In this document: positions 15,847 through 54,795 of the stretch, piece by piece
How the letters are laid out: each line of letters opens with the position of its first letter
How positions within the stretch are numbered: the stretch's first letter is position 1
Origin: a virus
Taxonomy: Duplodnaviria; Caudoviricetes
IMG/VR virus record: IMGVR_UViG_3300020576_003530
Location: 1 to 64,000 of that record
Reading direction: 5' to 3' (one strand)
DNA: 64,000 nt
Made by a program: the position numbers and the translations under genes
Notes under the pieces: generated by a model
What the model was told of the DNA's origin: nothing
Seen by the model: the letters and a program-made list of their open reading frames with translations, nothing else
The model's database searches: none

Positions 15847-16134
15847 GTGAAAATCAGTCAGATTCTCAAACAAGCGGGTAATTTGAGGGAACTATTAGGA
15901 CTGAAGTTAGATAAGCCGGATTCCTTTTACTTTGCCTATCCGGTTATACCAGATCGTTACGAGATAATTGTGAACGGGTGTCAATGTCCCACTAACCGAT
16001 ATCCACGATGCGATCGACGGTGCGAATTTTGCGAATGCTTAACTGAGGACGAGATGGAGATCTATTATACTTTCGGTCATAGAAGGTTAATTGAATACTA
16101 TCTGGATCAATTTAATGAGTTCAGAGGCCTCTAG
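15847..16134 (+). CDS. Cys-rich small protein with MKI-type leader, paralog of 17479..17712
   Basis: GTG start after AGGAAGG; 'GCQC...CEFCECLTEDEMEIY'. Confidence 0.55.
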   Translation: MKISQILKQAGNLRELLGLKLDKPDSFYFAYPVIPDRYEIIVNGCQCPTNRYPRCDRRCEFCECLTEDEMEIYYTFGHRRLIEYYLDQFNEFRGL

Positions 16135-16147
16135 GAAGGATGTCGGA

Positions 16148-16453
16148 GTGAATATTAGACAAATGTTGGCTAACGTTCCCTTTCCTGATGTAGACCTTCT
16201 TACCGGCTGGCCCTCTAAAAAGTTTGCCGCTCTGAAGGATGGAGAAAAGTTTACCTTCGATTGGAACGACCGAACTGTAATAGTTAAATACGACGAAACA
16301 GTTCAAGATCAATACTGGGGATCAACATTACTGGAAGCTTTGATTGAATTTGACAAAGAGTGTCAGTCTGAAGGGTGCGAGGAGAATATAACTATCTATT
16401 ATAATAGGGTGGATTTAACTGAATTCTGGGAGATTGGACACTGGAGGAGTTGA
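16148..16453 (+). CDS. hypothetical protein with MKI-type leader
   Basis: GTG start (MNIRQML) with an upstream sequence nearly identical to that of 15847. Confidence 0.5.
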   Translation: MNIRQMLANVPFPDVDLLTGWPSKKFAALKDGEKFTFDWNDRTVIVKYDETVQDQYWGSTLLEALIEFDKECQSEGCEENITIYYNRVDLTEFWEIGHWRS

Positions 16454-16712
16454 CATGAAATACAAAGTTAAGATCCGACGTAAAATGGTGGACGTTCTCA
16501 ATCAGAATGGGGCAACTCTTGCTTGGACATCTCATACTGATAGCACCAGCACCCGCAATGGTTTATGGTATATTACTCCTGCACTGTCTGCCCAAGATCT
16601 TATCAGGCTGAGCACCTTTTTGTCCACTCTCAATGTAAAAGAACTAACAAAAGATAAAGAAAATCCGCCACCGCCCATCCCGTCATCACCTCTTACCTAA
16701 GGAATTGATTCG

Positions 16713-16973
16713 ATGCTAACTGCGATTAATAACTATGTACTGATCAAGCCAGAAGAAACACCTAAGACCGTTGGAGGGCTTGTGTTACCCAAAAATATTC
16801 CTAGTACGATCAGGAAGGGGGTCGTCATCTCTATCCATCATTCTATATCAACAGCAATTTTTAAGATCGACTCTGTCGTTTACTTTCCTACCATTGAAGC
16901 TCAACCAATCATTATTGATGACGTTCAGTATTTCCTCATTGAGTCCAAGTATATTTATGGAGTAGAGGTATGA
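16713..16973 (+). CDS. GroES-like co-chaperonin
   Basis: 'AINNYVLIKPEETPKTVGGLVLP...GVVISI...YFLIESKYIYG' follows the GroES pattern. Confidence 0.7.
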   Translation: MLTAINNYVLIKPEETPKTVGGLVLPKNIPSTIRKGVVISIHHSISTAIFKIDSVVYFPTIEAQPIIIDDVQYFLIESKYIYGVEV

Positions 16974-17478
16974 GAATGAAATACAATATTTTTGAGCACA
17001 TTATACATCTACTTATTGTTCTATTCTTTATTTCATTGTTTTTCTGGGTACCTGCCATTCGCACTGATCCAGTAGGGGCTCAACGTACTCTAATTGCACA
17101 GGGCTATACTGGAATCACCGTTGGAGGCTTTGGCTGGTTTCAGGGTGATGACTTTTATTCAACAAAGTTTAAGGCCATCAGCCCGAACGGTACTCCTGTT
17201 TCAGGCGTAGTTACCTCCGGTCTCATTGCCAAGGGTCATACTGTAAGATTGGATTAAGGATGAGCAAGAAAGATAGTCCGGCAGATACATTTCAATCTCT
17301 CGTAGAGGAATTAGTTAACGATACCCAACGTCATGTCTCTCACTGTGCCGACGAAGGAAGCTTCTGCGTCTTTTGTAGTGCTCGCTGGGGCTACTGGCCA
17401 CATCCTCCTACCGTTCACGATCCTACTTGTTGGTTAGTAAGAGCAACAAAGATTTTATCAACCAAGGTAGATTAGTCT

Positions 17479-17712
17479 ATGAATATCAAGACCATCATCA
17501 GTCTTATTGATTGGACCTTCCTGCTCAAACGTAATCCGGCAAGATATAGGATTCCCAAGAGTAAGGTTGACATGGTAGTTGCCGGTTGTCGCTGTCACTT
17601 AGGCTTTCCGCCCTGCAATTTTTGTACCGATCTGACTGAGGAAGAAGCTGAAGTTTACGCCACGCATGGTTATGTCGCCCTTTTAGACTTTGTCCTCGCT
17701 CAAGAGCGGTGA
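17479..17712 (+). CDS. Cys-rich small protein with MKI-type leader
   Basis: 'GCRCHLGFPPCNFCTDLTEEEAEVY'. Confidence 0.55.
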   Translation: MNIKTIISLIDWTFLLKRNPARYRIPKSKVDMVVAGCRCHLGFPPCNFCTDLTEEEAEVYATHGYVALLDFVLAQER

Positions 17713-17721
17713 GACCTCACA

Positions 17722-18129
17722 ATGCAGTTAGACTTATTTTGCCCCATTTATGAGTCTGTAGGCGTGGTAACCTACGTTCCCGATAATCAATCGCCCGGCT
17801 GGGCATATCTAGAGGTAGACCAAGACCTCTCTCACTACTATCGATGGTTGAGCCGTATTCCTTGGCGTTCTCCCCTAAATGGGACTCACATTACCTTTGT
17901 GGCTGGCCAGCATGAGGGAAGAGTGGTGAGCAAGTCTGAAATGAACGAATGGTTAGGCAAACCCATTATGTTCTACTATTCCCCCTTACTTCATACAAAT
18001 GGATCTTCATGGTGGCTGAATGTGAAGTCGGATGGGTTAGATCAAATAAGGGGTAAGTTAGGATTATTACCACGCCCCTCCTATCACGTTACATTAGGGA
18101 ATTTGAAGGAAAATAGAAAGCGAACATAG
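17722..18129 (+). CDS. 2H phosphoesterase-like protein
   Basis: two HxT motifs, 'THITF' and 'YHVTL'. Confidence 0.6.
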   Translation: MQLDLFCPIYESVGVVTYVPDNQSPGWAYLEVDQDLSHYYRWLSRIPWRSPLNGTHITFVAGQHEGRVVSKSEMNEWLGKPIMFYYSPLLHTNGSSWWLNVKSDGLDQIRGKLGLLPRPSYHVTLGNLKENRKRT

Positions 18130-18156
18130 TTCGCTCTTACTAAAGGTGTTTCACAC

Positions 18157-18498
18157 ATGAATCAATCGCAGAAAGATGTCCTAGTCCTCGTTCGCGAATA
18201 TAAGAAGTTATTTCCAAATTTACCTACACGCTGGGAATTTAGTTATAATGGGGGAGGAGATGATGGAGATTGGGACGACATTCCCGATTTTGACGATATC
18301 GAGGCTCTAGAAAAGATGCAGGAAGCTCTTTTCGAGATGGTCTCCGACATTCAGGGCGACTGGTATAACAATGATGGTGGTGGTGGCTCTATTACAATCG
18401 TCTGGGCAACTGGCGAGGTAGAGTGGTCATATTACTATAATGTGATGACGACGGATGATCATAGTAAGTATTTTGGTCTAGACCAATTGGAGGATTAA
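18157..18498 (+). CDS. DUF6878-like acidic protein
   Basis: 'FSYNGGGDDG...WYNNDGGGGSI'. Confidence 0.5.
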   Translation: MNQSQKDVLVLVREYKKLFPNLPTRWEFSYNGGGDDGDWDDIPDFDDIEALEKMQEALFEMVSDIQGDWYNNDGGGGSITIVWATGEVEWSYYYNVMTTDDHSKYFGLDQLED

Positions 18499-18553
18499 GC
18501 AGGATTGAAAACGTGTTTACTCATCTTAATTTCCATCTCTCATGGAGTCTTCG

Positions 18554-18979
18554 ATGTCTCATCCATATCATCACAGTCTGAGCAGCGTTAAAAAGTGGGG
18601 AGGGGTTCCTACTGACTATCTCCCCGTTCATTCCTGGTTTGATGAAAGTAAGAAGTATTATGGGGATTTCCGCCATCGAGCCTTACGTCATCACACTTTA
18701 GGCATCTTCGAGGCTGAATCTGTCTTTGGTCCTACTATCACTAATAGTGACGGAAAAGCCATTCCTACTCGCTCAATCGGAGAACAGCACGTCAAGGAGG
18801 ACTGTGGATTTGTCCCCACCCTTCAAGACTGGCTCTCCTGCATTACCGCTCAACCTTGGATGTTCAAGGATGTAGTAAAGAGGGATAAGAAAGGATTGCC
18901 TACGCAAGATGTAATGAGTCAGACAGTCAATAATAGTCATCATGACTATAATCCGTATGCAGAACAAGACATCCCATAA
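18554..18979 (+). CDS. DUF6915-like His-rich protein
   Basis: 'HPYHHSLSSVKKWGG...HSWFDESK...DFRHRALRHH...EQHVKED'. Confidence 0.65.
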   Translation: MSHPYHHSLSSVKKWGGVPTDYLPVHSWFDESKKYYGDFRHRALRHHTLGIFEAESVFGPTITNSDGKAIPTRSIGEQHVKEDCGFVPTLQDWLSCITAQPWMFKDVVKRDKKGLPTQDVMSQTVNNSHHDYNPYAEQDIP

Positions 18980-19042
18980 GTAGTGTTTTAATGTTTAGCC
19001 CGTTTTTCAGTTCTCAGCCCCTCTTACAGAAAGGTTTCGCTC

Positions 19043-20251
19043 ATGGCAAATAGCACTGTTAGCAAAAAGTCGGTCAAGTCAGACGTTGCTCCTCTCCCCT
19101 ATTCCTTCAAACATCAACGCAATCTGAATATTGCAGATACGAATTATGATGAATTGGAGGATGGTAATGAGTCACAATCTCCCATTGAATATGACGAGGT
19201 TACCACTCTCGAAGAATATGTTAAAAATGGTCGCAAGACCAATACGGTAATTGGTACAAAGGACGTTGTCCGTTTTGGAGATGGTTATCTTGCCGCTGTC
19301 TCTTCCAATGGTTGTATTTACGATCAAACTATGTATGATGACGAAGCCCAATTCGCGTTATCAAGCGGGAATAGAGATTTTGGTAACGAAGCAGATATGC
19401 CACATGCCTTCATTATGAAAGATGGAACCGTCCTAGAGGATGGTGAAGATGGGCAGGCCCGATATACAGGATATCCGACCTTCTCGCCGACTGTGCTGGC
19501 TAGCCTTATTGCAGGCAAAGATGTGGCCAATCTTTCAAATTCTTTCAAGGTCTCTACCATTCTCAACGCTAATAACTTGAAGGTGCTTGACTCCACCACA
19601 GCGTTCGAACAGACTGCTTCGGCCGAAATCAAGAAGGCTTTTACTCAGGCCAAGAAGGATGAGAAGTTTTCTATGACCAAGTTCAATGAGACTTGGAAAA
19701 AGTCGGCTCCTCAATTGGGCGTCACTCTAGTTAGCAGCGATGGCACTACTAACGATCTTCGTTGGCACTCGAGTCCAACGGTCCTCTTCCAGCACAATTC
19801 TCGCTATTACATTCTTGGCCAAGATGAGGGTAGTTATTTTGGTTGCGAGCTGGAAGGCTCCCCACAGACCATCGAGGAAGCCTTTGAGGACTTGAAGCCC
19901 GTCCAAGTTCGCGGTAAGAATGGGGTACTACGCCAAGGCGAGTGGTTCGCCGTTCCGGAGCCTAAGAGTGCCAAGCATGACATGAAGAATTACTACAACA
20001 ATCCTAATGTGGTTGCTATTTTAGACGCTGAGCACGATACCGGATTCGTTATGCCCAAGGAAAGCGAGGACTCTAATAGTCATACATTAGATGGCGAGCA
20101 AGGGGTAATCTTGAAGGACGGAACCATCTTGGTTAATACTTTTGTTATGCGTCACAATGATCATGCCGACATGAAAGGCCTCAATAACGTGTGGTACAAG
20201 TTCTATCGGAACACGGCTAAGGCTAGCTACTCCACGCAGGGTGTGGACTGA
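19043..20251 (+). CDS. hypothetical phage protein, paralog of 3675..4796
   Basis: shares the conserved blocks listed for 3675..4796. Confidence 0.7.
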   Translation: MANSTVSKKSVKSDVAPLPYSFKHQRNLNIADTNYDELEDGNESQSPIEYDEVTTLEEYVKNGRKTNTVIGTKDVVRFGDGYLAAVSSNGCIYDQTMYDDEAQFALSSGNRDFGNEADMPHAFIMKDGTVLEDGEDGQARYTGYPTFSPTVLASLIAGKDVANLSNSFKVSTILNANNLKVLDSTTAFEQTASAEIKKAFTQAKKDEKFSMTKFNETWKKSAPQLGVTLVSSDGTTNDLRWHSSPTVLFQHNSRYYILGQDEGSYFGCELEGSPQTIEEAFEDLKPVQVRGKNGVLRQGEWFAVPEPKSAKHDMKNYYNNPNVVAILDAEHDTGFVMPKESEDSNSHTLDGEQGVILKDGTILVNTFVMRHNDHADMKGLNNVWYKFYRNTAKASYSTQGVD

Positions 20252-20285
20252 ACGAAAATAATGGGTCTTAGATAATCTTCCATTT

Positions 20286-20314
20286 AGGGAGAGGGAAGCC
20301 TCTTCCTATTTTTT
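20286..20314 (+). terminator. intrinsic terminator
   Basis: AGGGAGAGG-GAAG-CCTCTTCCT hairpin followed by a T run. Confidence 0.6.
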
Positions 20315-20643
20315 AGTATGACATTCTGAGAACGGGGTTCTACAGTTTTGCTGTCTAGTAGTCTCTTACTTATGACAAAACCGATATTAGACGTAGTAGT
20401 ACAAGAAAAGGGCAAGGATCATCAGGATCAGTTATTAATGAGTGTCAAACACATACTCATCAATCATGGTTATCGCAATAGAGTGAACGAATTTATTGCC
20501 CGTGCTACAATGGGTAATTATGAGAATTTAGTAAATGTATGCTCTCAGTGGGTAGTGATAGAAAGAAACAGTAAGAAGTCAAAAAAGTAAGTCAGCAAAG
20601 TCAATCTAACCGCATAGAGCCTTCCGTCTTAATCTTTCCGAAA

Positions 20644-21156
20644 GTGTTAATCTCTGATATGAACAATGAAATAGAGTCTTCCATCAACCCTACCTACTCT
20701 CATCAGTCTTATGGGCCAGATAAGAAATCTTGGGCTGATCTCAATAGTATTGCATGGGCACAGGTTAAAAAGTTTACAGGCGTCTCTCATGAAGACGCTG
20801 TCCAAGATGCTTGGCTAATCTTCCTCTCCAACTTCGACCATATTCGAAGTTCTGCCAACTACATGGTAAACTGTGTAAAATGGGCAGTCGGGAATCAGTT
20901 GGATGAACGTAAACGATGGAGTCAGGAAAAGGCTTATGTGGCACCAGCCAGCGAATTTTCCGACATGGATCTGTCCGACTATTCAGGCATACTAGAAAAT
21001 CCGACCAACACTTCAGACTTGGATCTCTTTTCAAAGTACACTTGGGGAAACTATACTTTGTCCGAACTGGGTAAACTTCATAACGATCACCCCTACAACG
21101 TTCAATTACGAATTGAAAATACACGCGGTCTGTTACGATCCCACCTAACAATGTAA
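20644..21156 (+). CDS. putative ECF/sigma70-like factor
   Basis: region-2-like 'HEDAVQDAWLIFL'; C-terminal HTH-like 'YTLSELGKLH...VQLRI'. Confidence 0.45.
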   Translation: MLISDMNNEIESSINPTYSHQSYGPDKKSWADLNSIAWAQVKKFTGVSHEDAVQDAWLIFLSNFDHIRSSANYMVNCVKWAVGNQLDERKRWSQEKAYVAPASEFSDMDLSDYSGILENPTNTSDLDLFSKYTWGNYTLSELGKLHNDHPYNVQLRIENTRGLLRSHLTM

Positions 21157-21428
21157 ATGGAGGACAATGAGCAGTTTAAGCGATTTACTAAAAATACGTA
21201 TCATTAGTGCTACTGAGGCTACAGTAAGTTATACCGATCATCGAGCATCAATAACAATTTCTTTACCCTGCAATGCCCTCATTTACGGTAAGATCATTCA
21301 AAATATGATTGGAGAGTCTTACTATATTGTGCATGAGGTCTATAGGGAAGAGGAAAAAACTGGCGTTGAATTTCAAACAATAGTTGTGCCCAAAGTGGCA
21401 TGTGAAATTTTACAAGTAGAGGAACAAA

Positions 21429-31273: not shown

Positions 31274-31600
31274 ATGAAAGTTAGCAAAGTTCTCTCATAC
31301 ATTGATTTAACAGCATTTCTAATACTAGACATCGATAATCTTGCTCGTTTTCCACTCGGTGAGTGGTGCCCAGTGTCACATATGGGTGCGACGCATTATG
31401 TTATGAAGACGAATAGTTTAAAGTATATGCATCCTGATGATAAAAGAAAACAACCGTTAGCTGATGTTGGTGATTGTAAAGAATTTATTAAACAGTATGT
31501 GCTACCATCTAAGACAGAATCAAGATATGTTATCGTCAATGATAACGCCGGATGTTTAATTCACAGTTCCGATCCAAACATTGTACCATATGAAGATTAA
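31274..31600 (+). CDS. MKI-leader family protein, subfamily B
   Basis: MKVSKVLSYIDLTAF...SDPNI. Confidence 0.6.
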   Translation: MKVSKVLSYIDLTAFLILDIDNLARFPLGEWCPVSHMGATHYVMKTNSLKYMHPDDKRKQPLADVGDCKEFIKQYVLPSKTESRYVIVNDNAGCLIHSSDPNIVPYED

Positions 31601-31895
31601 ACAGCTCATTACCCATATAGATTTACAACAGTATCTTACAGTAGATCTAAACAAATTAGAGTTGCTCCAATTACATCGTTGGTATAGAGTGACACCTAAT
31701 CTGTTCATTTATCGTACCAATTTAAAAAGATATCAGTGTTTAGATTCAGAATGGAAAGGAACTCTCATAAACATAGAACCTAAAGAATATTGCGAATCAA
31801 TTTTACGACATATAAACGAACCCAATTACGTTGTTTTTAATTTAGAATCAAACTGTTTAGTAAACCATTCTAGCGATCAAATTATCACTTTCTAA
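31590..31895 (+). CDS. MKI-leader family protein, subfamily B
   Basis: MKIKQLITHIDL. Confidence 0.6.
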   Translation: MKIKQLITHIDLQQYLTVDLNKLELLQLHRWYRVTPNLFIYRTNLKRYQCLDSEWKGTLINIEPKEYCESILRHINEPNYVVFNLESNCLVNHSSDQIITF

Positions 31896-36152: not shown

Positions 36153-36394
36153 ACATTCTCCCTAATGACATCTTCATTCACTGTGAAGGAAAGACCGTCA
36201 GACTATACTTTGAACTGGAAGTGGTAGGAGATATTCCCAACTCCGAGTTTTACAGTCTCATCAATCCTCGCCCTTACTTTGTGGTAGAATGTGGGGATGA
36301 CTATCAGGCAACGCACAGCATTCCCGCCCCATCCTCCATCATATTCCTCTTACTGGGATTGCTTTTACTCCTCCCTCGGAAACGTAAACCATGA
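36149..36394 (+). CDS. small protein with PEP-CTERM-like C-terminal sorting signal
   Basis: C-terminus 'IPAPSSIIFLLLGLLLLLPRKRKP' = IPAP motif + TM helix + basic tail. Confidence 0.6.
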   Translation: MNILPNDIFIHCEGKTVRLYFELEVVGDIPNSEFYSLINPRPYFVVECGDDYQATHSIPAPSSIIFLLLGLLLLLPRKRKP

Positions 36395-36726
36395 AAATTA
36401 ATGCCTTGCTTCAATCTATCGTGACTGACGCTGCGGTAGATCCTTTATACTATGTAGGATATCCTATTGAAGGACATCATGGACTCAAAGTATTTTGTAA
36501 GTATTATCTAGATCAGACTCCCTTTTTAATTCCACAATCTAAAATAGCAAAAATGATAGAAACATGTGATTCCTATCTTCACTATTTAGATTTGAGCATT
36601 CAAGACTGGGCAGAAAACGACAATTATAATGCTATTGCTGCTTGTGTAGATGGGCAATGGTATGTAATACCAATGAATTCAGTTAAACAATATCGGTCCA
36701 TTAAGTATAAAGGAATTCAAACATGA
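36391..36726 (+). CDS. MKI-leader family protein
   Basis: MKINALLQSI. Confidence 0.55.
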   Translation: MKINALLQSIVTDAAVDPLYYVGYPIEGHHGLKVFCKYYLDQTPFLIPQSKIAKMIETCDSYLHYLDLSIQDWAENDNYNAIAACVDGQWYVIPMNSVKQYRSIKYKGIQT

Positions 36727-43526: not shown

Positions 43527-43763
43527 ATGGCTAAGATTATTTTCAATGGTTCGCCCGTCACCCTGAATTCCGTCGTTGGTTCCACCGTTGGTCAGTTCCG
43601 CGACTCTGCGGCTTTCGAGCAGGCCAAGGACCTCCTCGAGGTTCCTGACAACGTCAACCTCGAAATTCAGGACGGCACCACTTGGCGTACCGCTGACAAC
43701 GACGACCTGATTGAGACCGGTACCAATCTCCGTCTGACTCAGACTGTCGGTACCAAGGGCTAA
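43527..43763 (+). CDS. ubiquitin-like (beta-grasp) protein, PRTRC protein C-like
   Basis: 78 aa; C-terminus 'DDLIETGTNLRLTQTVGTKG' ends in Gly; AAGGA RBS; first gene of an E2/JAB/E1 operon. Confidence 0.75.
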   Translation: MAKIIFNGSPVTLNSVVGSTVGQFRDSAAFEQAKDLLEVPDNVNLEIQDGTTWRTADNDDLIETGTNLRLTQTVGTKG

Positions 43764-43867
43764 ATCGGAGTAAGCCAGACTAAGCTAGTTAAGTTAGTCT
43801 AATTGAAGTTCATACTGCGGGTTAAGTACGATCTCTAGATCCTCTGCTTAACCCCTTTTCATTCTTC

Positions 43868-43903
43868 GAGTCGGGTAGGGTTCACTCCCTGCTCGGCTTT
43901 TTT
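43868..43903 (+). terminator. intrinsic terminator after the Ubl gene
   Basis: GAGTCGGGTAGGG-TTCACT-CCCTGCTCGGCTT hairpin followed by a T run. Confidence 0.65.
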
Positions 43904-43953
43904 AATTCAGACGTTCTGAGTTAAGTTTTCACTCATACACAAGGATTTCATAC

Positions 43954-44817
43954 ATGACTGGTACACGGGTTAAGAAAGTTAAGTTGGCGGATAGCGTGGG
44001 GACTACTGCAGTAATTGGTAAGGCTACCGAAGCTATTGTTGGCAGTGAATCTGTTGTTAAGGCTAAGAAAAAGCGTGCCCCGCTCAAGGACAAGCTCAAC
44101 ACTAACAACACTATTGCTATCCTCAAGCCTGATGGTGTGCTTGTGCTTCAGATTGAGGCCAACGGCGAAACTGCCGAAGCCAAAGCTGTCGGTATGTGTG
44201 AGTGTTCGGATCTGATCGACGCCCTTCGCTCGGAAGAATCAATTTCTACCCCGATCCTGCCTCGCCATACTCGCTGCTATTCGACCATTCATAAGGGAGG
44301 TTCTAAGAAAGACGTATACCTGTTGGAGATTCCTCCAACTCTTCGCGTCCTCCAACACTCCATTCATGGCGAACTCCGTCTCTGGTTCCCCTATCACTAT
44401 TTCATTGTGAAGGCTTCCAGCATTAATGGCGACACTATTGTTGGCGGCCAGGTGATGACTTTCTTTGGTAATCGTCCGCTCAAGAACATGAATGACTATC
44501 CTCAGTCAATCGCTCTGAACAACGTGGAAACTCGTGGCATCATTTGTTTTGGAGAGAATACTATTGATCGTAATCACGCCGGTAAGGACTCCTCAGAAGT
44601 CATTAACGATGTGGTTCAAACCTTCTTTAGCTCCACCTTTAACAATCACTATGATGAGTACCTTCTCAATCTGATGCCCGCAGAACTTGCTGGCAAGAAC
44701 GCTAAGGAATTTTATGCTAATTGGCAAAAGAAAGCGGAAGACCCAATTTCTGCCTGCTCATTTAGCTGGCGGACTTACAACATTAGCTTTGCAGACCTTA
44801 TGAAAGGAAATTCTTAA
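43954..44817 (+). CDS. prokaryotic E2-like protein (family D / PRTRC protein B-like)
   Basis: 'PILPRH', 'FPYHYF', 'LNNVETRGIICFG' with candidate catalytic Cys, 'FFSSTFN'. Confidence 0.7.
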   Translation: MTGTRVKKVKLADSVGTTAVIGKATEAIVGSESVVKAKKKRAPLKDKLNTNNTIAILKPDGVLVLQIEANGETAEAKAVGMCECSDLIDALRSEESISTPILPRHTRCYSTIHKGGSKKDVYLLEIPPTLRVLQHSIHGELRLWFPYHYFIVKASSINGDTIVGGQVMTFFGNRPLKNMNDYPQSIALNNVETRGIICFGENTIDRNHAGKDSSEVINDVVQTFFSSTFNNHYDEYLLNLMPAELAGKNAKEFYANWQKKAEDPISACSFSWRTYNISFADLMKGNS

Positions 44818-45044
44818 TGTCCAAGACTATTGACGTAGAATTACTGAAAGACCGAACAAAGAATACTAAGAAGACCAGCACGGGCAAACTAGACGATAAT
44901 TTCAGTCGTCTCGTTAGTGCTCTCAATAAGTGTTCGTTCTATGACTGTAAGGGTATTGAAGATACCGACGAGTTTGTGGAATTCATCAATCAGACTGACA
45001 AAGGTAAATCAGTCGTTTCTCTCGCTAAAGGAGTCCGTAGATGA
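44817..45044 (+). CDS. small hypothetical protein within the Ubl operon
   Basis: start and stop overlap both neighbours. Confidence 0.55.
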   Translation: MSKTIDVELLKDRTKNTKKTSTGKLDDNFSRLVSALNKCSFYDCKGIEDTDEFVEFINQTDKGKSVVSLAKGVRR

Positions 45045-46444
45045 TTATTGATGTTGGAATTGCAAAGTTAGAAATTGTTGCTCCCGAGGGAGAAGTTACG
45101 CATGACTCTTCGATCAATTATCACAATTATCGTGGTACATGGTTGAAGAGACGGCAAATCGGACCTGCCACCTATTTGGTGCCAGTAAATGATCGTGAGG
45201 AAGGTAACATCAGCAAATGGATGGAACAATCTCTTGGTGAGGCAAAATATAAGCCCGCCATGATTTACTTCCTGAATTATGATCAGAAGGTCAAACTAGA
45301 TCCTGAGGATCTCCGTTACTTCATGCGTTATGCACAGGCCATTCATAACAAGCATAAGACCGAGTGTGCGGCTCTCCTGCTGTACAATCCTGACAATAAC
45401 GATTGGAAGTTCTTCTATCCATTGCAGGTTGATACAAGCGGAGGTGCCGTTACCTACATCTTCCCAACCTCAAACTTGGCAGATCCCAAGATTGCTAAGT
45501 ACTTTGAGAAGAACGAGGAAAATGTTAAACTGCACGAAAAAATCGTTGCAGACTACAATGAGTTGTTCGATGCTGGATACTCTGTGGCGGGCACCATTCA
45601 TAGCCATCACACTATGAGTGCGTATCACTCGGCAGTTGATGATGCCGACGAAATGAAGTTTGACGGACTCCACTTGGTTGTTGGTCACATCTTTAGCGGA
45701 TTTGACTTTGCTGCTCGGTGGATGCTTCAGCGGACTGAGTTTAAGCTCGATATTACCGATGTGGTCGATATCAGTAGGGAAGAATTAGTCAAAGACGTCG
45801 AGTCCATCGAAGTCTCTGACTGGGATATGGATCTACTGCGTCACTACACTAATCCGACGCCAAATCTGGCATTCTGGCACGGGAATAGCTGGGAAGGCTT
45901 TGAGGACCAGCGTGGTAATGCCTATGGTCATTATGGGAGTTACGGCAATCATGCAGGGTTTCTTCGCTCGGCTGAAGACTTGGTGTCAAGCCGTCGTGGG
46001 GGCGATTCTCTGTTTACCTGTTGCGATGCCTGTGGCAAACAAGTCAAGGAAGACGAAGGAAACAGACCCTTTGCCGGGTTCTGTGCAGAGTGTGGTAACC
46101 GATTTCTCTCCAACAACCCAAAAAGCATCTCGGCTATGTTCAACTACCGATATGCCAGCAAAAAACCGGGCAGCTACTTCCTCGAAGCGGACTATATTAG
46201 ACTATACGATCCCGATGTCAAAGAATTCGTCTGGATCAACCGCGAAGAATACGAAAAAGACAAATCTTTCTACTCCAAGTGCATCGTCAGAGAGCTTGAC
46301 GAAATCCGAATTGAGGAAGTTTCGGAAGCAATTGAAGAAATCCAAAAACAAGAAATGGGGCAAACGGTAGTAAAAAACGACAGTGAAGGTGAGGATATTT
46401 TTAATTTCCTCGATGAAGTGATGGATCCTAATAGGGAGTCTTAA
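45041..46444 (+). CDS. JAB/JAMM metallo-isopeptidase with C-terminal zinc ribbon and acidic tail
   Basis: 'KTECAALL' Glu plus exact HxH-x7-S-xx-D 'HSHHTMSAYHSAVD'; 'CDACG...CAECG'. Confidence 0.85.
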   Translation: MIIDVGIAKLEIVAPEGEVTHDSSINYHNYRGTWLKRRQIGPATYLVPVNDREEGNISKWMEQSLGEAKYKPAMIYFLNYDQKVKLDPEDLRYFMRYAQAIHNKHKTECAALLLYNPDNNDWKFFYPLQVDTSGGAVTYIFPTSNLADPKIAKYFEKNEENVKLHEKIVADYNELFDAGYSVAGTIHSHHTMSAYHSAVDDADEMKFDGLHLVVGHIFSGFDFAARWMLQRTEFKLDITDVVDISREELVKDVESIEVSDWDMDLLRHYTNPTPNLAFWHGNSWEGFEDQRGNAYGHYGSYGNHAGFLRSAEDLVSSRRGGDSLFTCCDACGKQVKEDEGNRPFAGFCAECGNRFLSNNPKSISAMFNYRYASKKPGSYFLEADYIRLYDPDVKEFVWINREEYEKDKSFYSKCIVRELDEIRIEEVSEAIEEIQKQEMGQTVVKNDSEGEDIFNFLDEVMDPNRES

Positions 46445-47164
46445 ATGATTTTTGAAGTAAAGCGAATTCTTGTGGTGGGAGCTGGCGGTACTGGTAGTAT
46501 TTTGTTGCCTCAACTAGCCAGACTGTTGCTTCTGACCGAAAACATGCCCGAACTCCACATTGCTGACGGAGATTCTTACAGTGAGTCCAATATCACTAGA
46601 CAGAATTTTGCTCTGCAATATGTGGGTGAAAATAAGGCAAAGTATCAGGCCGAGTTGTTAGTCTTCCAAATGCCTAACATTGCGGATAAGATTTTCTATC
46701 ACGATCGATATTTGTCAAAGGCCGACATTGACGAACTCGTCATTGATGGCACCATCGTAATTAACTGCGTGGACAATCTTGCAGCCCGCAAGCACGTTGA
46801 AGACGCGGTGTGTAAGATGGATAATGGTGCCCATATCTGCTGTGGTAATGAACTCAAACACGGACAAGTTCAAATTAGCGGCCGCAAAAAGGGCGTTCAG
46901 TTTTCTCCCACTATTTTTGAGCGTAATCCCGAATGGAATTCGACCGACGATGATCGCTCCGAAATGACATGTGAGCAGATCGCCACACTGCCATCGGGCG
47001 GTCAGGTGATTTGTTCTAACATGACAGCAGCGTCGATTGCCCTTAATTTTGTGTATCAATTGATGTTTGCTCGTCGCAGTATCCCAAATTGCGATCAAGT
47101 CAATTTTACTATCATTGATAATGGGTATGAAAAGCTGGGGGCACAGGTGTTGGCAGCCGTGTAG
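46445..47164 (+). CDS. ThiF/E1-like adenylyltransferase
   Basis: 'VVGAGGTGS', 'DGDSYSESNITRQ', 'NKA', 'NCVDN', candidate catalytic Cys in 'MTCEQI'. Confidence 0.9.
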   Translation: MIFEVKRILVVGAGGTGSILLPQLARLLLLTENMPELHIADGDSYSESNITRQNFALQYVGENKAKYQAELLVFQMPNIADKIFYHDRYLSKADIDELVIDGTIVINCVDNLAARKHVEDAVCKMDNGAHICCGNELKHGQVQISGRKKGVQFSPTIFERNPEWNSTDDDRSEMTCEQIATLPSGGQVICSNMTAASIALNFVYQLMFARRSIPNCDQVNFTIIDNGYEKLGAQVLAAV

Positions 47165-49564: not shown

Positions 49565-50008
49565 ATGTTTCAAGAAATTCCTGAAATTCATGTAAAAATT
49601 GTTAATCCCGATGCGATCATGCCAGCCAAGGCAGGTCCCAATGAATGTGGATATGATGTGACGGCTGCATCGGACCCCATTCTTACTGATACCTTGGTTG
49701 AGTACGATATTGGAATCCAAGTAGAGCCTCCGCCCGGTTTTTACTTTATTCTTGTTCCTCGTAGTAGTATTACCAAGTATGACTTGGTGTTTGCTCAAGG
49801 CGTTGGTATCATCGATCCCACCTATCGTGGCAATATCAAGATGCGATTTAAGCTGAATAAGCCGCAGGCCGAAGCCAAGTATTATGCTAAGGGTGAACGA
49901 GTTGGGCAACTTATTCTTATGCCTTACTTTAGTGCTCCTATCATTCAGAAAGAGACCCTTACTAATACTGCTCGTGGCGATGGCGGATTTGGTAGTACAG
50001 GAAAATAA
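49565..50008 (+). CDS. dut: trimeric dUTPase
   Basis: 'GYDV', 'PRSS', 'GIIDPTYRGNI', 'RGDGGFGSTG'. Confidence 0.95.
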   Translation: MFQEIPEIHVKIVNPDAIMPAKAGPNECGYDVTAASDPILTDTLVEYDIGIQVEPPPGFYFILVPRSSITKYDLVFAQGVGIIDPTYRGNIKMRFKLNKPQAEAKYYAKGERVGQLILMPYFSAPIIQKETLTNTARGDGGFGSTGK

Positions 50009-50369
50009 CGATGATTATTCTATCTCTCATTTTATTAGGTATTGTGTTTGCAAACGCATACTTTCTTAATGAATACATCTCTCAGAGAGATAAACAGTCT
50101 AAAATAGAAAATATTTGTTGTTTGTTTGCCATCATTTCTTGCTTCCTAGCCGGTTTCTATTTGGCCAAAATAGTTTACGAGTTGCCTCCAGTAGATATAA
50201 AAATTCAAATCAATGAAAAATAAGTTCTCGTATCTTGCCTACCTTCGTTCCGATCAGGCCATGCATATTGCAGGATTTTCCTGCGGTTTTCTCTTTGGTC
50301 TCGTACTATTCTTTCTTATTCTTACATTGATTTAAACTCCTATATCAGTGTATGTAATTCTACCTATCT

Positions 50370-52355
50370 ATGACAAATTTCTCATTATCGTTTCCAACAG
50401 CAGAGAACATCCTGTCCGAAGAGTTTCTATCTAAATATCGCGGTAAACAACCTGAATGGGGTTTCAATGGGCTCGGTTACATAGTTTATAAAAGAACCTA
50501 TGCTAGATTAAAAGAAGATGGTTTGACAGAAGAATGGAATGAAACAGTAGAACGCTGTATTAGAGGTGCTCAAAAAATTGGAGCCGGTTATACCGTAGAA
50601 GAAGCGGAAAGATTATATGATCACATGTTTAATCTACGTGGTAACATGGCTGGCCGTTTTTTGTGGCAACTTGGTACAATAACAGTAGATAAATTAGGTC
50701 TTCCTAGTCTTTGTAATTGTTGGTTTGTTACCATGCATGAGGCAGAGTCTTTCTGTTTCTTATTTGAGCATCTTATGTTGGGCGGCGGCGTTGGTTTTAG
50801 TGTTCAAAAAGAGCATATTTATCAACTGTCCAAAGTAAAGAAATTTTCAAAATCTATTCTTCATGAAAAAACTAAAGACGCTGATTTTATCGTTCCGGAT
50901 TCTCGCGAAGGATGGGTTGAGCTCCTAAGAAAAATTCTCCACTCTTACTTTGTAAGTGGTAAGGGTTTTACCTATTCAACTATTCTTGTTCGCGGAGCGG
51001 ATGAACCCATCAAGGGATTTGGAGGGACAGCAAGCGGTCCACAAATTCTCATCGATGGCATGAACAACATTTTAAACATATTCAATAGTCGTGGCGGCAA
51101 ACGTTTGCGTAGTATTGATGTTCTTGATATCTGTAATATTCTTGGCTCGATTGTAGTTGCCGGCAATGTACGACGTTCTGCTGAATTGGCTATTGGTGAT
51201 GCAGATGACAAATTGTATCTGCAAGCCAAAAACTGGTCAAAGGGAAATATTCCTAACTGGCGTGCTATGAGTAATAATAGCATCAACGCCGATGGCTATA
51301 ATTATCTTAGTAATGATTTTTGGTCAGGATATAGTGGCGACGGAGAACCTTATGGTATTACTAATATTCGACTTACCCAAAAATATGGGCGTTTAATAGA
51401 TGGACCTATGAAACATTCTGGTTTGTATCCTTTTAAAGAGGATCCTGCTGTCGGATTCAATCCTTGTGTTGAAGCTAATCTAGAATCCGGCGAACCATGT
51501 GATTTAGCCGAACTCTATCAAAATAGATTAAATAGTAAAGAAGAAATGTTAGATTGTGCTATTTTACTATATAAAGCACAAAAGGCAGCTCTCACTCTAC
51601 CGTCTATCTATCCGATTACTGAAACTATTGTACGTAAAAATATGCGTATTGGTCTTGGTGTTACTGGAATTTGTAACGACATCTCTAAGAGGGATTGGTT
51701 AGATTGGGTATATGTAGAGTTACGTAAATTTGATAAAGAATGGTCAAAACAACGTGGTTGGGCCGAAAGTATTAAAATGACCGTTATTAAACCAAGTGGT
51801 ACACTTAGTTTATTAGCTGGTTCATTTCCTGGCGGACATCCTGGTTATAGTGACTATTTTATTCGTCGAGTTAGAATGTCTTCGAAAGATAGATTAGTGG
51901 AAGTATGTCGTAATCTTGGATGTCCTATCGAATATCAAATTAATTTTGATGGTACAACCGATTATGCAACATCAATTGTAAGTTTTCCATGTACTGCTGG
52001 TGAAAATGCTCTTGTAGCGGATAACGTTTCTGCTGTTGATCAGTTAGAAATGATGAAGTATCTTCAGACTTATTGGGCAGATCAATCGGTATCAATTACG
52101 GTTTACTATAAAAAAGAAGAGTTGCCAGTCATTAAACAATGGTTAGAAGAAAATTACGAAACATCTGTTAAAGCGGTAAGTTTCTTACTTCATTCAGAGC
52201 ATGGTTTTAAACAAGCTCCTTATGAAAAAATCAGTAAAAATGAATACGAAAAAATGTGTAAGCACATGAAGCCAATTTCTTCTATGCACGCAGATGTTGG
52301 AGATCAACTGTTAGATTCCTCAGAATGTGTCAATGGGGCGTGTCCAGTAAGATAA
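50370..52355 (+). CDS. nrdJ: class II (adenosylcobalamin-dependent) ribonucleotide reductase
   Basis: 'SLCNC', 'GGGVG', 'VAGNVRRSA', 'NPCVE', 'KPSGT', C-terminal 'ECVNGACPVR'. Confidence 0.93.
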   Translation: MTNFSLSFPTAENILSEEFLSKYRGKQPEWGFNGLGYIVYKRTYARLKEDGLTEEWNETVERCIRGAQKIGAGYTVEEAERLYDHMFNLRGNMAGRFLWQLGTITVDKLGLPSLCNCWFVTMHEAESFCFLFEHLMLGGGVGFSVQKEHIYQLSKVKKFSKSILHEKTKDADFIVPDSREGWVELLRKILHSYFVSGKGFTYSTILVRGADEPIKGFGGTASGPQILIDGMNNILNIFNSRGGKRLRSIDVLDICNILGSIVVAGNVRRSAELAIGDADDKLYLQAKNWSKGNIPNWRAMSNNSINADGYNYLSNDFWSGYSGDGEPYGITNIRLTQKYGRLIDGPMKHSGLYPFKEDPAVGFNPCVEANLESGEPCDLAELYQNRLNSKEEMLDCAILLYKAQKAALTLPSIYPITETIVRKNMRIGLGVTGICNDISKRDWLDWVYVELRKFDKEWSKQRGWAESIKMTVIKPSGTLSLLAGSFPGGHPGYSDYFIRRVRMSSKDRLVEVCRNLGCPIEYQINFDGTTDYATSIVSFPCTAGENALVADNVSAVDQLEMMKYLQTYWADQSVSITVYYKKEELPVIKQWLEENYETSVKAVSFLLHSEHGFKQAPYEKISKNEYEKMCKHMKPISSMHADVGDQLLDSSECVNGACPVR

Positions 52356-52382
52356 AATAAATGTAATTTTTTGTTTAGTCCA

Positions 52383-52404
52383 AGCCGATTAACCTCGGCT
52401 TTTT
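52383..52404 (+). terminator. intrinsic terminator
   Basis: AGCCGA-TTAACC-TCGGCT hairpin followed by a T run. Confidence 0.55.
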
Positions 52405-52426
52405 CTATTTTGTAGGAATAGTTAAT

Positions 52427-52789
52427 ATGAAGATTGACAAACTAATCGAGTTGATGAATACTCCTATTGCATCATTAGGAGAATCACCCCTTATTCTTAA
52501 TTGTTTCAATCAATACTATTATAAACGTCATAATACAAGATCATATTCAGATCATAGGCCATACACAATTGTTTGTGGCTATGCTAAATATGATAAAACA
52601 ACAGACAAAACAACTGATATGAGTATTAAATACAACCCACATATTCACAATGTTTATGTTTTATACTCTATTTTATGGCATGAGCCGGATGAAATTCAAT
52701 CTCGATTTGATAGATTTATGAATAATGAATCTTCACTATTTTATGGTCTTTCCTATATTAAGACGGATCTAAAATTAAGGCTAGTATGA
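52427..52789 (+). CDS. MKI-leader family protein, subfamily C
   Basis: MKIDKLIELM; IVCGYA, WHEPD, GLSYI. Confidence 0.6.
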   Translation: MKIDKLIELMNTPIASLGESPLILNCFNQYYYKRHNTRSYSDHRPYTIVCGYAKYDKTTDKTTDMSIKYNPHIHNVYVLYSILWHEPDEIQSRFDRFMNNESSLFYGLSYIKTDLKLRLV

Positions 52790-53172
52790 AAATACAACAT
52801 CTAATCAATCACATACCTCCAATAAAAGGGTTCAATATATTGCCGATTAAAACACGACTCAAACTCGAAGACATCATAGTCTGTGCTGCATGGATTAATG
52901 GGGCGTTTGATTACTATGAACCTGACATATATGACATCGTATGTGGATACGGTCGCGTTATCTGGGAAAACGATCGACCATATTATATTGAGCGAGCCAG
53001 CACAAAATATTTCCCTAGTGCTAACCATTATCTTACCTACGATTCCTTCTGGTGTGATGAGCCTGATTTAAACGAACAGTTGCAAAATATGATTGATGAC
53101 AATGAATATATAAGTTTGGGTCTCTCCCCCATTCCCACTCAAACAATCAAGAGTATTCGATATGAAAATTGA
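52786..53172 (+). CDS. MKI-leader family protein, subfamily C
   Basis: MKIQHLINHI; IVCGYG, WCDEPD, GLSPI. Confidence 0.6.
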   Translation: MKIQHLINHIPPIKGFNILPIKTRLKLEDIIVCAAWINGAFDYYEPDIYDIVCGYGRVIWENDRPYYIERASTKYFPSANHYLTYDSFWCDEPDLNEQLQNMIDDNEYISLGLSPIPTQTIKSIRYEN

Positions 53173-53587
53173 TCAAATTATACAAACTCTAGGGCCAAGT
53201 AAATTTCCTATATTGAAGATTAAACACAAAATCGATCCTAATAAGCTTGATTTTTACGGTAGTTGGTACAAGGGAATTTGCGATAAAAACCAGTGGAAGA
53301 AAAACGATAACGATGGCGATGTCTTCTATTTCACAGTTTGTGGATATGCTCACGTGATCAAAGATGATGAGCAGTACGAAATTCTATCTGCCAACATCTC
53401 TTATTTTAAAGAAGCTAATGCCTATCTAACCTATTCTGCTTTTTGGACTGACACCGATTCCATGAGTGACCTTTGGAATAAGATCTCCACCAAACCCGTC
53501 GAGTTGTATTTGGGAGTTTCATACATTCCTGTTGGGTTTGAAAAAATTGTATACAAAAATAGTGATAAATTGATCTCAAGTTTTTAG
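53162..53587 (+). CDS. MKI-leader family protein, subfamily C
   Basis: MKIDQIIQTL; TVCGYA, GVSYI. Confidence 0.6.
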   Translation: MKIDQIIQTLGPSKFPILKIKHKIDPNKLDFYGSWYKGICDKNQWKKNDNDGDVFYFTVCGYAHVIKDDEQYEILSANISYFKEANAYLTYSAFWTDTDSMSDLWNKISTKPVELYLGVSYIPVGFEKIVYKNSDKLISSF

Positions 53588-53595
53588 GATTTACT

Positions 53596-54039
53596 ATGAA
53601 ATTAATCATTGCTGGTTCTCGTGATGTAAAAGATATCAAAGTATTAGAAACAGCCATTGAGCGGGCTGGTCTTGATCCTGCCTCTATTAGTGAGGTTGTA
53701 AGTGGTAAGGCTCCCGGAGTGGATACGCTGGGAGAGATTTGGGCTAAACAGCATGGAATCACGGTCACCCCATTCCCTGCCCTCTGGGATGATCTCGAAG
53801 GCGTTCCTGCTAAGCAGATTAAAACTAATAGTTGGGGCAAGAAGTATAATATCAAGGCAGGTACAGAACGTAATCAGCAAATGGCCGACTACGCCGATGC
53901 TGCCCTAATCATTATTAAGGATGGATCATCAGGATCGACAGATATGCTCAAGAGGGCCAAAAAGGCCGATCTTACTATCTACTACTTTATGTATGAGCAG
54001 TTATTAATGGAGGAGGGCGATGATACCCTCACACTATGA
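53596..54039 (+). CDS. SLOG/YspA-like (DUF2493) protein
   Basis: 'LIIAGSR', 'VVSGKAPGVDTLGE', 'AGTERNQQMA', 'GSTDM'. Confidence 0.8.
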   Translation: MKLIIAGSRDVKDIKVLETAIERAGLDPASISEVVSGKAPGVDTLGEIWAKQHGITVTPFPALWDDLEGVPAKQIKTNSWGKKYNIKAGTERNQQMADYADAALIIIKDGSSGSTDMLKRAKKADLTIYYFMYEQLLMEEGDDTLTL

Positions 54040-54404
54040 AGATTGCCAAAATCGTTAGTAAAATTCAAAGGCCTGCGACCAATTTGCAATATCTAGCGAA
54101 TAATCAAGTCCGACTACAAAATTGCCCCGTAATTTTGGAGTACGATACGCCAATTGATTTTGATTTTTGGACACCCGCAACGCATTCCAATATTGAATAT
54201 AAGGATCGTATGACAGGCGTGTTTCAAATATACAATATGTTTTGTCACGAACCCGGCCTGTGGACCAGAGTCTCTTCAAAAACACAAGCGTTATGGATAA
54301 GTTGTTATAGTAGTGGTCACAACGATTATAGTCCAGACTACTTCTATATCCAGTTGGCAGATGTTACTCATGGTAATAAGTTAGTTAATCTATCCTATCG
54401 TTAA
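54036..54404 (+). CDS. MKI-leader family protein, subfamily D
   Basis: MKIAKIVSKI; NCPVIL, DRMTG, FYIQL. Confidence 0.6.
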   Translation: MKIAKIVSKIQRPATNLQYLANNQVRLQNCPVILEYDTPIDFDFWTPATHSNIEYKDRMTGVFQIYNMFCHEPGLWTRVSSKTQALWISCYSSGHNDYSPDYFYIQLADVTHGNKLVNLSYR

Positions 54405-54420
54405 AAGGCGTACTCATACT

Positions 54421-54795
54421 ATGAGAATTGATAAAATCATCGATAAGTTAACACTACCAATCTTTGATGTAGTCTTTCTTCCTAATCATCAAATCCTTCT
54501 TCACAATTGTCCTGTTATTTTAGGTCATCATCCACCATTAGATTTTGCCTTTAGCGATCTTGAATGTCATAAAAAGATTAACTATACTGATCGCCTAACC
54601 GGGATGTATAAAATCTCGTTTTATTACTACCATCTCGGACATAGTTTGTGGCATACAACTGAGAGCTGGGATCCTCGTACGGTTTGGATTGCAGGATACC
54701 GTCGCGAAGACCAAGATACTTCCGATTTCTATATCCAACTGAAAGATGTTAATCTGGTTAATGAAGAACGTAAAATGTCATACTGTCTAGCCTAA
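54421..54795 (+). CDS. MKI-leader family protein, subfamily D
   Basis: MRIDKIIDKL; NCPVIL, DRLTG, FYIQL. Confidence 0.6.
   Translation: MRIDKIIDKLTLPIFDVVFLPNHQILLHNCPVILGHHPPLDFAFSDLECHKKINYTDRLTGMYKISFYYYHLGHSLWHTTESWDPRTVWIAGYRREDQDTSDFYIQLKDVNLVNEERKMSYCLA

Follow-up and report, generated by a model that had tools for sequence, protein, structure and literature searches.

Do small phage proteins that begin alike and then differ carry a common address on unrelated bodies, or do they keep the first helix of a common ancestor? This question is raised by the window analysed here, a stretch of 64,000 nucleotides (positions 1 to 64,000) of the Caudoviricetes record IMGVR_UViG_3300020576_003530. 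The phage is a novel one without a close cultured relative, and its genome of 125 kb contains 181 genes. The set in question comprises 17 small genes (about 9% of the total), all on the plus strand and encoding products of 77–141 aa. Inspection of the ORFs at their coordinates reveals that they, their N-termini and their body lengths are as the initial annotation had described. The caveat concerns the genes at 15847 and 16148, in which the start codon is GTG and follows a strong AGGAAGGA Shine-Dalgarno (SD) sequence at a distance of 7 nt. Other gene callers pick upstream in-frame ATGs for these two, and therefore the motif may be internal in them rather than at the extreme N-terminus. All 17 genes are located within the replication/nucleotide-metabolism arm, on the strand opposite to the virion genes, and their neighbours encode RNA and DNA ligases, a RuvB-like protein, ThyX, RNR and a YAcAr SLOG protein. 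Many members have no clear Shine-Dalgarno sequence and many overlap the preceding stop codon. The members are as follows.

15847..16134, +: group A member, 95 aa; Cys-rich (C-x-C ... C-x2-C); GTG start after AGGAAGGA SD; homologous to 17479 (BLASTP 1.8e-10)
16148..16453, +: group A-like, 101 aa; GTG start after AGGAAGGA SD; weakest of group A; orthologue P0028 in relative
17479..17712, +: group A member, 77 aa; Cys-rich; orthologues P0025, P0026
29390..29722, +: group B member, 110 aa; orthologue P0019
29719..30114, +: group B member, 131 aa; start overlaps stop of the 29390 gene; orthologue P0024
30083..30379, +: group C member, 98 aa; orthologues P0020, P0021
31274..31600, +: group C member, 108 aa; sequence used for the B+C fold model (pLDDT 85)
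31590..31895, +: group C member by sequence, 101 aa
35802..36152, +: singleton F1, 116 aa; weak body link to group E (E-F1 body-only P 0.0066)
36391..36726, +: singleton F2, 111 aa; weak body link to D (D-F2 body-only P 0.013, 71 collinear columns); orthologue P0013
41051..41416, +: D0, 121 aa; distant group D relative (body-only P 7e-4); orthologue P0015
41648..42031, +: group D member, 127 aa, 14% Tyr; orthologue 66% identical, adjoining a 99.5%-identical RuvB-like gene
52427..52789, +: group D member, 120 aa; first gene past a terminator-like hairpin behind the RNR gene; a different D paralogue instead in relatives
52786..53172, +: group D member, 128 aa; modelled, pLDDT 52 (unreliable); dN/dS 0.39–0.46
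53162..53587, +: group D member, 141 aa; 43–50% identity to positional counterpart; dS 1.1–1.6 vs 0.05 in the neighbouring YAcAr gene
54036..54404, +: group E member by sequence, 122 aa
54421..54795, +: group E member by sequence, 124 aa

The leader and the bodies behind it

The leader spans about 10 residues and consists of Met, an AAN-coded Lys or Asn, Ile, and hydrophobic residues at positions 6, 7 and 10 (Ile or Leu at position 10 in 12 of 17), with the hydrophobic residues spaced i, i+3, i+4, i+7. Its mean hydrophobic moment is 0.45 as compared to 0.28 in other N-termini (P 3.6e-6). The content of Pro plus Gly is 1.3% at residues 2–10 and rises to 13.5% at residues 11–20, where the helix is usually followed by a Pro/Gly linker of variable length. 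Expressed as the regular expression ^M[KNQR][IV]xx[ILMV][ILMV], the pattern matches 19 of the 181 genes genome-wide, namely the 17 members together with an ORF of 46 aa (77477) and a protein of 264 aa (88705), against an expectation of 0.29 from composition and internal frequency (binomial P ~7e-25 for at least 17). An HMM made from the N-termini (12 aa) of group D only, which is independent of the tuning of this expression, places all 13 other members in the top 20 of the 181 genes, nine of them at ranks 5–13 and above every non-member. The leader proposed earlier is thus enriched over background, and one group retrieves the others by it. As an external control we used 1,632 genes from 70 IMG/VR contigs carrying an RNR of about 60% identity. 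Three matches to the expression (one gene in three near-identical contigs) were found there where 2.6 were expected, which is the chance rate, and none of these 1,632 genes is matched by the family HMMs.

Comparison of the bodies by hhalign profiles after removal of the first 12 residues gives a different picture. Four or five groups are recognisable with weak links between them: A, B+C, D with 41051 (possibly also 36391), and E with 35802. The homology of B and C is clear and extends along their entire length, whereas the remaining body-only links are D to 41051 (P 7e-4), E to 35802 (P 0.007) and, weakly, D to 36391 (P 0.013). No link is found by this comparison among A, B+C, D and E (P 0.14–0.9), and a C-terminal profile trained on D retrieves no other group. 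The division into unlike subfamilies therefore stands, with four to five of them by sequence in place of the at least five counted earlier. As judged from these profiles, it is supported that the short N-terminal segment is the sole element common to bodies which are otherwise not detectably related, in agreement with the initial annotation. The bodies were also described as Tyr-rich, which is borne out (7.5% vs 4.2%, P 4e-7), and as AT-richer than their neighbours, which applies to the set as a whole (36.1% vs 42.8% GC, P 2e-7) except for group A, which is not AT-rich.

The information in the leader resides in codon positions 1 and 2. Because third positions are free and Leu, Ile and Val codons are mixed at the hydrophobic positions 3, 6, 7 and 10, the constraint acts on the peptide; the leaders have no similarity at the DNA level, and no conservation is seen in the DNA upstream of the members. 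However, codon 2, which is AAN in 15 of 17 members, is also AAN in 21% of other genes as compared to 11.7% internally, so part of the motif may be a translation-initiation preference. Identity between orthologues is 85% in the helix as compared to 70% in the bodies (Fisher P 1.6e-4). Within group B+C, conservation of the helix is no higher than that of core residues, and it may simply belong to the fold.

Two groups, B+C and D, were modelled, and one of them (B+C) confidently. The B+C model shows an alpha/beta fold (pLDDT 85, pTM 0.76) with core values of 86–95, in which residues 1–10 are the least confident part (mean pLDDT 50). The low value for the helix may merely mirror a shallow alignment. 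The order of elements is alike in the B+C and D models (N-terminal helix, four to five strands, one helix, one to three strands), with the D model, at pLDDT 52, being too poor for fold comparison. No relatives of any group were found above threshold in Pfam, PHROG or PDB, and the confidently predicted B+C body has no structural match.

Distribution and variability among relatives

When 1.84 billion proteins were searched exhaustively by profile, 13 matches were returned, all of them orthologues in close relatives; matches of the A and B+C profile searches likewise come solely from the same genome and its close relatives. Members of group D are 29–70% identical between phages in which RNR, RecA and the RuvB-like protein are 99.4–99.7% identical, and dN/dS is 0.16–0.46 in members against 0.02–0.16 in neighbouring genes. 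Members are gained, lost or swapped, the relatives having one extra paralogue and one replaced paralogue. The products of 54036 and 41051 are 99–100% identical to their orthologues, so hypervariability is not universal in the set. These comparisons of sequence support a family that is restricted to close relatives of the 125-kb phage and behaves as a diversifying accessory set, much as the arsenal suggested in the initial annotation. When otherwise near-identical genomes are compared, some of its members rank with the loci that vary most, as genes directly in conflict with the host typically do.

Possible roles of the shared helix

Taken together, the data suggest that a variable set of accessory proteins shares a handle for docking. 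In the explanation that we favour, at somewhat below an even chance, a clade-specific family arose by tandem duplication, kept its first helix as a common interaction handle and turned its bodies to variable recognition. Tandem duplication in the plus-strand replication/nucleotide-metabolism arm would have expanded the family, and later divergence would have been so deep that only the four or five sequence groups stay recognisable. Across all groups the N-terminal amphipathic helix would have been kept, followed by the usual Pro/Gly-rich linker and a globular alpha/beta body. The helix may dock onto one conserved phage or host partner, or drive self-assembly, while the fast-changing bodies would supply variable target recognition. 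The proteins might then be host-takeover or counter-defence factors, presumably made alongside the replication genes. An origin by duplication is indicated by the tandem arrays, in which adjacent groups are mixed, by the common size range, by the Tyr and AT bias of every group but A, and by the group-specific flavours of the leader.

The same features also fit a single ancient family in which all 17 proteins have one alpha/beta fold and the helix is just its slowest-evolving element, with no separate role in targeting or docking. The chain of body links from B–C to D–41051, D–36391 and E–35802, weak as it is, and the similar element order of the two models point the same way. However, once the leader is cut, neither the pairwise profiles nor the D C-terminal profile joins A, B+C, D and E. 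Moreover, linkers of variable length follow the helix, the helix is the least confident part of the B+C model, and the D model cannot carry a fold comparison. We consider this explanation rather doubtful. It is unlikely, too, that the MKI helix is a portable address tag for one hub (either the procapsid core or some machine of the host or the phage) on at least three structurally unrelated bodies, which would amount to an independent invention, by a phage lineage unrelated to T4, of the T4 capsid-targeting (CTS) principle with hypervariable counter-defence cargo. The leader is kept as a hydrophobic pattern only, whose flavours follow the body groups, and such co-divergence looks like descent by duplication, not like a grafted cassette.

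Capsid targeting of the T4 type, which the initial annotation had put forward, would have the leader bind the scaffolding core, so that proheads are loaded and the proteins are injected with the DNA as anti-defence cargo. An N-terminal element of about 10 residues common to diverse small proteins, and variable loci like those of T-even internal proteins (PMC3012670, PMC9026906), are consistent with it. Hypervariable bodies would suit injected cargo, and a 488-aa coiled-coil protein, encoded between a 641-aa ORF (tentatively the portal by its position after the terminase; no family match) and the capsid gene, is a candidate scaffold. However, in T4 the prohead protease gp21 removes the leader as a propeptide by cutting behind the Glu of an L/I-x-E motif (PMC9026906), whereas an [LI]xE site ending at residues 8–16 is present in 2 of our 17 proteins and no other conserved site follows the leader. 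The motif is absent from the head, scaffold and other structural-arm proteins, and the leader is conserved just as a hydrophobic pattern, whereas those of IPII and IPIII are identical (PMC9026906). PHROGs and Pfam recognise no prohead protease, but the whole structural arm is too divergent for both; there they recognise just the terminase, a cement protein and, at threshold, a capsid protein. Without a conserved L/I-x-E site, and with all genes in the replication arm away from the head genes, capsid targeting is unsupported, and we regard it as quite improbable.

It is very unlikely that the leader is a membrane-targeting amphipathic helix, concentrating the proteins on the inner face of the host membrane, where the helices of MinD, FtsA and SpoVM lie. 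Its high hydrophobic moment, fitting length and basic residue at position 2 (12 of 17) would agree with such a role. The net charge of residues 1–11, however, is 0 to +3 (0 in five members), acidic residues are frequent, with Asp the commonest residue at position 4, and the hydrophobic face consists of four residues without aromatic anchors.

Least credible of all is an action on synthesis or turnover rather than location, either as an N-terminal degron for a host AAA+ protease or as a preference in the initiation region of genes that are translationally coupled and poorly led by an SD. The AAN codons, the missing Shine-Dalgarno sequences, the overlapped stops, and the large residues at position 2, which would retain the initiator Met, would fit, but not the free third positions and mixed codons of the hydrophobic residues, nor the absence of the motif from other genes of the phage. 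Three classes of N-terminal degrons are recognised by ClpX (Flynn et al. 2003, as cited in PMC12723719). The resemblance of the leader to a ClpX N-motif (Met-basic-hydrophobic) is at most loose; ClpX degrons are described as unstructured (PMC12723719), whereas the leader is predicted to be helical. A leader of 10 residues common to all 17 proteins provides a direct experimental entry point to a possible shared partner or location.

Comparison with known systems

Short amphipathic membrane-targeting or docking helices are present in MinD, FtsA and SpoVM. They resemble the leader in their length of about 10 residues and in the hydrophobic spacing i, i+3, i+4, i+7, whereas the leader has a low net charge and frequent Asp at position 4. 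Polymorphic toxins and effectors (PMC3482391) have in common with our set a constant N-terminal handle (in their case a trafficking module), diversifying C-terminal parts and conflict-driven evolution. However, they are large secreted bacterial proteins that exchange recognisable domains by cassette recombination (PMC3482391), in contrast to phage proteins of 77–141 aa with no secretion signal and with leaders that are dissimilar at the DNA level. The T4/T-even CTS proteins IPI, IPII, IPIII and Alt differ in that their leader is cleaved by gp21; the present set has a degenerate hydrophobic leader with neither a conserved site nor a recognised protease, and its genes lie among replication genes. 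Yet in both cases an N-terminal element of about 10 residues stands on small, diverse, phage-variable proteins (PMC9026906, PMC3012670), and at least one CTS protein of T4, IPI, is an anti-restriction factor (PMC9026906, PMC3012670).

Occurrence of a common N-terminal leader

The phage genome is a single contig of 125,275 bp (43% GC), of which the window covers the first 64 kb. Seventeen small genes, named here by their start coordinates, had been described in the initial annotation as having a leader of about 10 residues in common. Translation from these coordinates reproduces all 17 N-termini exactly, in ORFs of 77–141 aa. The start codon is ATG in 15 genes and GTG in 15847 and 16148, which have in common a strong AGGAAGGA Shine-Dalgarno sequence 7 nt before each GTG. 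Upstream in-frame ATG/TTG codons are also present in these two genes and are chosen by gene callers in a relative, so their starts are less certain. An in-frame 'VNIRLLV' upstream of 15847 lies inside the 3' end of the preceding gene and is probably a coincidence.

The pattern M-[KNQR]-[IV]-x-x-[ILMV]-[ILMV] matches the N-termini of 19 of the genome's 181 non-overlapping ORFs: the 17 together with two others, one of 46 aa at 77477 and one at 88705 that encodes an unrelated 264-aa protein. At internal positions the six-residue pattern has a frequency of 0.16%, which gives 0.29 expected N-terminal matches, and the motif is therefore strongly enriched over background (binomial P about 7e-25). Because the pattern was composed after inspection of the data, two independent controls were run. 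A profile built from the first 12 residues of the group D proteins only placed all 13 other members in the top 20 of the 181 genes, nine of them at ranks 5–13, above every non-member. The second control drew 1,632 genes from 70 IMG/VR phage contigs (1.24 Mb) carrying an approximately 60%-identical ribonucleotide reductase (RNR). The motif was found there three times against 2.6 expected, all three being one gene on near-identical contigs, and family profiles had zero matches among the 1,632 genes. The common leader is confirmed and is highly non-random.

The ORF at genome 77477–77617, outside the window, starts with MNIPSILTLY, which fits the pattern of the leader, perhaps as a remnant of the family and perhaps by chance.

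Relationship of the bodies and nature of the leader

BLASTP separates the proteins into group A (15847, 17479 and weakly 16148), group B (29390, 29719), group C (30083, 31274, 31590), group D (41648, 52427, 52786, 53162), group E (54036, 54421) and the singletons 35802, 36391 and 41051. B and C are alignable from end to end, share invariant Trp, Thr, Leu and Asn as well as an almost invariant Tyr, and hence form one family. The 'at least five subfamilies' proposed earlier reduce to four or five at the sequence level, with B and C merging. Orthologue-enriched profiles with the first 12 residues cut off link D to 41051 (P 7e-4), E to 35802 (P 0.007) and D to 36391 (P 0.013, 71 collinear columns), and leave A, B+C, D and E unlinked (P 0.14–0.9). 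With the leader retained, between-group alignments span just the first 5–24 residues. At the sequence level, the leader is the sole demonstrable element common to the four or five groups. A common C-terminus of the nine members between 35802 and 54795, plausible by eye, failed a cross-validated test with a D-trained profile.

The AlphaFold2 model of B+C (10-sequence alignment) has a pLDDT of 85 and a pTM of 0.76, and four of five models agree. It consists of a helix (residues 3–9), two short helices, four strands, a helix and three strands; mean pLDDT is 50 for residues 1–10 and 86–95 for the core. The unreliable D model (15-sequence alignment, pLDDT 52) is broadly similar, with an N-helix, five strands, a helix and a strand. 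It is possible that the leader is purely the structural first helix of one diverged fold; the predicted element order is compatible with one fold for B+C and D, though it falls short of showing it. Prediction of a group C homodimer, run without controls, scored 0.00 and is no evidence either way. None of the 17 has a sequence relative in Pfam, PHROG or PDB, the ESM Atlas gave neither a usable match nor a model for one group E and one group A protein, and a literature search found no described equivalent. The 17 proteins are new, without a known family or fold match.

Hydrophobic residues at positions 3, 6, 7 and 10 give the leader a mean helical hydrophobic moment of 0.45, compared with 0.28 for other N-termini (P 3.6e-6). 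Pro and Gly together account for 1.3% of residues 2–10 and 13.5% of residues 11–20, the first of them falling at 11–20 in 13 of the 17, so the helix is usually followed by a linker. Such an amphipathic segment might, less probably, be a membrane-targeting helix. Across 16 orthologue pairs, identity is 85% at residues 2–10 and 70% in the bodies (P 1.6e-4). The leader also differs from group to group, reading LLLK-HIDL in B+C, for instance, but K-I-[IV]-x-K-I in D and E, and a D-trained leader profile gives E its highest score; the leader has therefore diverged together with the bodies, without recent grafting onto them.

In the first 11 codons, information sits in positions 1–2 of the second and third codons and in the central T of codons 6, 7 and 10; with third positions almost free to vary, this shows that the constraint acts on the peptide. 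The DNA upstream of the 17 genes is not conserved. Codon 2 has the form AAN, for Lys or Asn, in 15 of the 17, and since AAN is also over-used at codon 2 of other genes (21% against 11.7% internally), position 2 may partly reflect an initiation preference. A degron or initiation signal is an unlikely alternative reading of the leader.

Genome context, distribution and variability

The plus strand carries genes from 1 to about 90 kb, including a PurA-like enzyme, two RNA ligases, a DNA ligase, a RuvB-like ATPase, ThyX, a JAB/ThiF ubiquitin-like module, a class II RNR, a YAcAr (SLOG) protein, RecA and DnaB. The nearest RecA among GenBank phages is 28% identical. As annotated initially, the 17 genes are scattered among core genes, lying in five small clusters between replication and nucleotide-metabolism genes in the same orientation.

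Other features (window coordinates)
2336–3619, adenylosuccinate-synthetase homologue (Pfam E 6.5e-41)
45041–46444, JAB gene, part of a phage-borne ubiquitin-like conjugation operon (43527–47164)
46445–47164, ThiF/E1 gene, part of the same operon
52382–52401, terminator-like hairpin with T-run, immediately after the RNR gene and 26 nt ahead of 52427, which opens the D array
53596–54039, YAcAr (YspA-related SLOG) gene, between the D and E arrays

The placement of the YAcAr gene is kept in all relatives seen, and its link with the family may be one of function or of position alone. Apart from the hairpin, scans for sigma-70 promoters and terminators near the arrays did not exceed shuffled sequence; given the hairpin ahead of 52427, the D array probably depends on a promoter of its own or on read-through. 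The motif TAAGTARGATTGA, with up to 2 mismatches, has 24 copies between 2212 and 55583 of the window against 4.65 expected (for example at 8852, 14231, 18496 and 29293). Most copies are on the plus strand and begin at a stop codon, and one lies 97 nt ahead of the first group B gene. Replication-arm genes may use the motif as a promoter or a processing signal. None of the listed sequencing runs that contain the sequence is on record as RNA, and three of the four runs guessed to be RNA are flagged 'probably DNA'; parts of the D array are without cover in these four, which proves nothing.

Tyr-richness of the family is borne out (7.5% against 4.2% elsewhere, P 4e-7). The claimed AT-richness is found overall (36.1% GC against 42.8%, P 2e-7, significant against other small genes too) but not in group A (41–47% GC). 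Next to group A, a leaderless 74-aa protein (window 15603–15827) ends in ISDEER-x5-LGY, which recalls LTEEE-x7-HGY of the adjacent group A bodies, although HMM comparison is not significant.

A D/E/35802/36391/41051 profile, run exhaustively with HMMER against 1.84 billion representative proteins, found 13 proteins of 110–137 aa; each is an orthologue or an additional paralogue in a close relative of the phage. Word-seeded searches using the B+C and A profiles returned only proteins of this genome and close relatives. These relatives are represented by contigs from metagenomes of fish, river, wastewater and sludge. GenBank phages gave no match to the arrays or to one D member (near-identity and tblastn). 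IMG/VR scans gave no match with a DNA-ligase anchor and, with a YAcAr anchor, distant phages only, all without the family, as were the 70 contigs found with the RNR anchor that served as control. Neither the RuvB-like protein nor the protein sequence P0009 had a match in scans of JGI metagenomes, and the capsid protein had none among GTDB genomes, which thus yield no host clue.

Core proteins of the relatives are nearly identical to those of the window (RNR 99.5–99.7%, RecA 99.4%, RuvB-like 99.5%; YAcAr 98.6% in the relative L001), whereas positional counterparts of 52786, 53162, 41648 and 52427 are hypervariable, at 56–70%, 43–50%, 66% and 29% identity. Variability is not universal among members, 54036 and 41051 being conserved at 99–100%. 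In the L001 comparison, dS is 1.1–1.6 for 53162 and 0.05 for the adjoining gene, which argues for allelic replacement and not in-place mutation. Members have dN/dS of 0.16–0.46 against 0.02–0.16 for neighbours. Gain and loss are also seen, with a single E gene instead of two in one relative and an additional D gene in another:

L008:2556–2936, extra group D paralogue; the counterpart region is the 52.4–54 kb array of the window

This paralogue has ATA where the family has ATG, with AAAGGA 6 nt upstream of the ATA and an annotated ATG five codons upstream. Judging from the sequence, either initiation would occur at a non-canonical codon or a 5-residue extension before the motif would be tolerated.

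Possible role of the leader and comparison with T4

The best-supported reading is a clade-specific family that would have grown by tandem duplication, its first helix being retained for one function common to all members. Most simply, this helix would dock to one conserved partner or self-associate, and the bodies would evolve fast, as expected when meeting variable host targets. The analysis shows the motif, the constraint on the peptide, the linker, the grouping, the narrow distribution and the hypervariability; expression alongside the replication genes, docking, and a part in takeover or counter-defence are inferred. The proposal that a diversifying arsenal carries a shared label is partly supported; its specific analogy with T4 capsid targeting is not.

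A capsid tag is a less likely rival reading. The virion genes lie on the minus strand at genome 90–125 kb (90000–125275), and the 17 genes stand apart from the head genes. This module is so divergent that PHROGs recognises just a 921-aa terminase and Pfam just the capsid and cement proteins.

Genes of the structural arm (genome coordinates)
117473–118471, minus strand, capsid protein (Pfam, at threshold)
118503–118970, minus strand, cement protein (Pfam)
119013–120479, minus strand, 488-aa coiled-coil protein, which may be a scaffold

The leader motif is absent from the structural-arm proteins. No prohead protease is recognised by PHROGs or Pfam, in an arm mostly too divergent for both.

In T4, the first 10 residues of IPIII are enough for packaging, residues 4 and 7 of the leader being needed for targeting and 8 and 10 for processing, and gp21 cleaves after Glu in L/I-x-E (PMC9026906). 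In contrast to this capsid targeting sequence (CTS), position 10 is hydrophobic here and [LI]xE ends at residues 8–16 in only 2 of the 17 proteins; the proteins therefore lack a defining feature of the T4-type CTS class. Packaging by a signal that acts without cleavage is possible. The design of a constant leader on variable bodies has a known precedent; the T-even internal proteins are a diverse anti-restriction set with the CTS as their only common part (PMC3012670).
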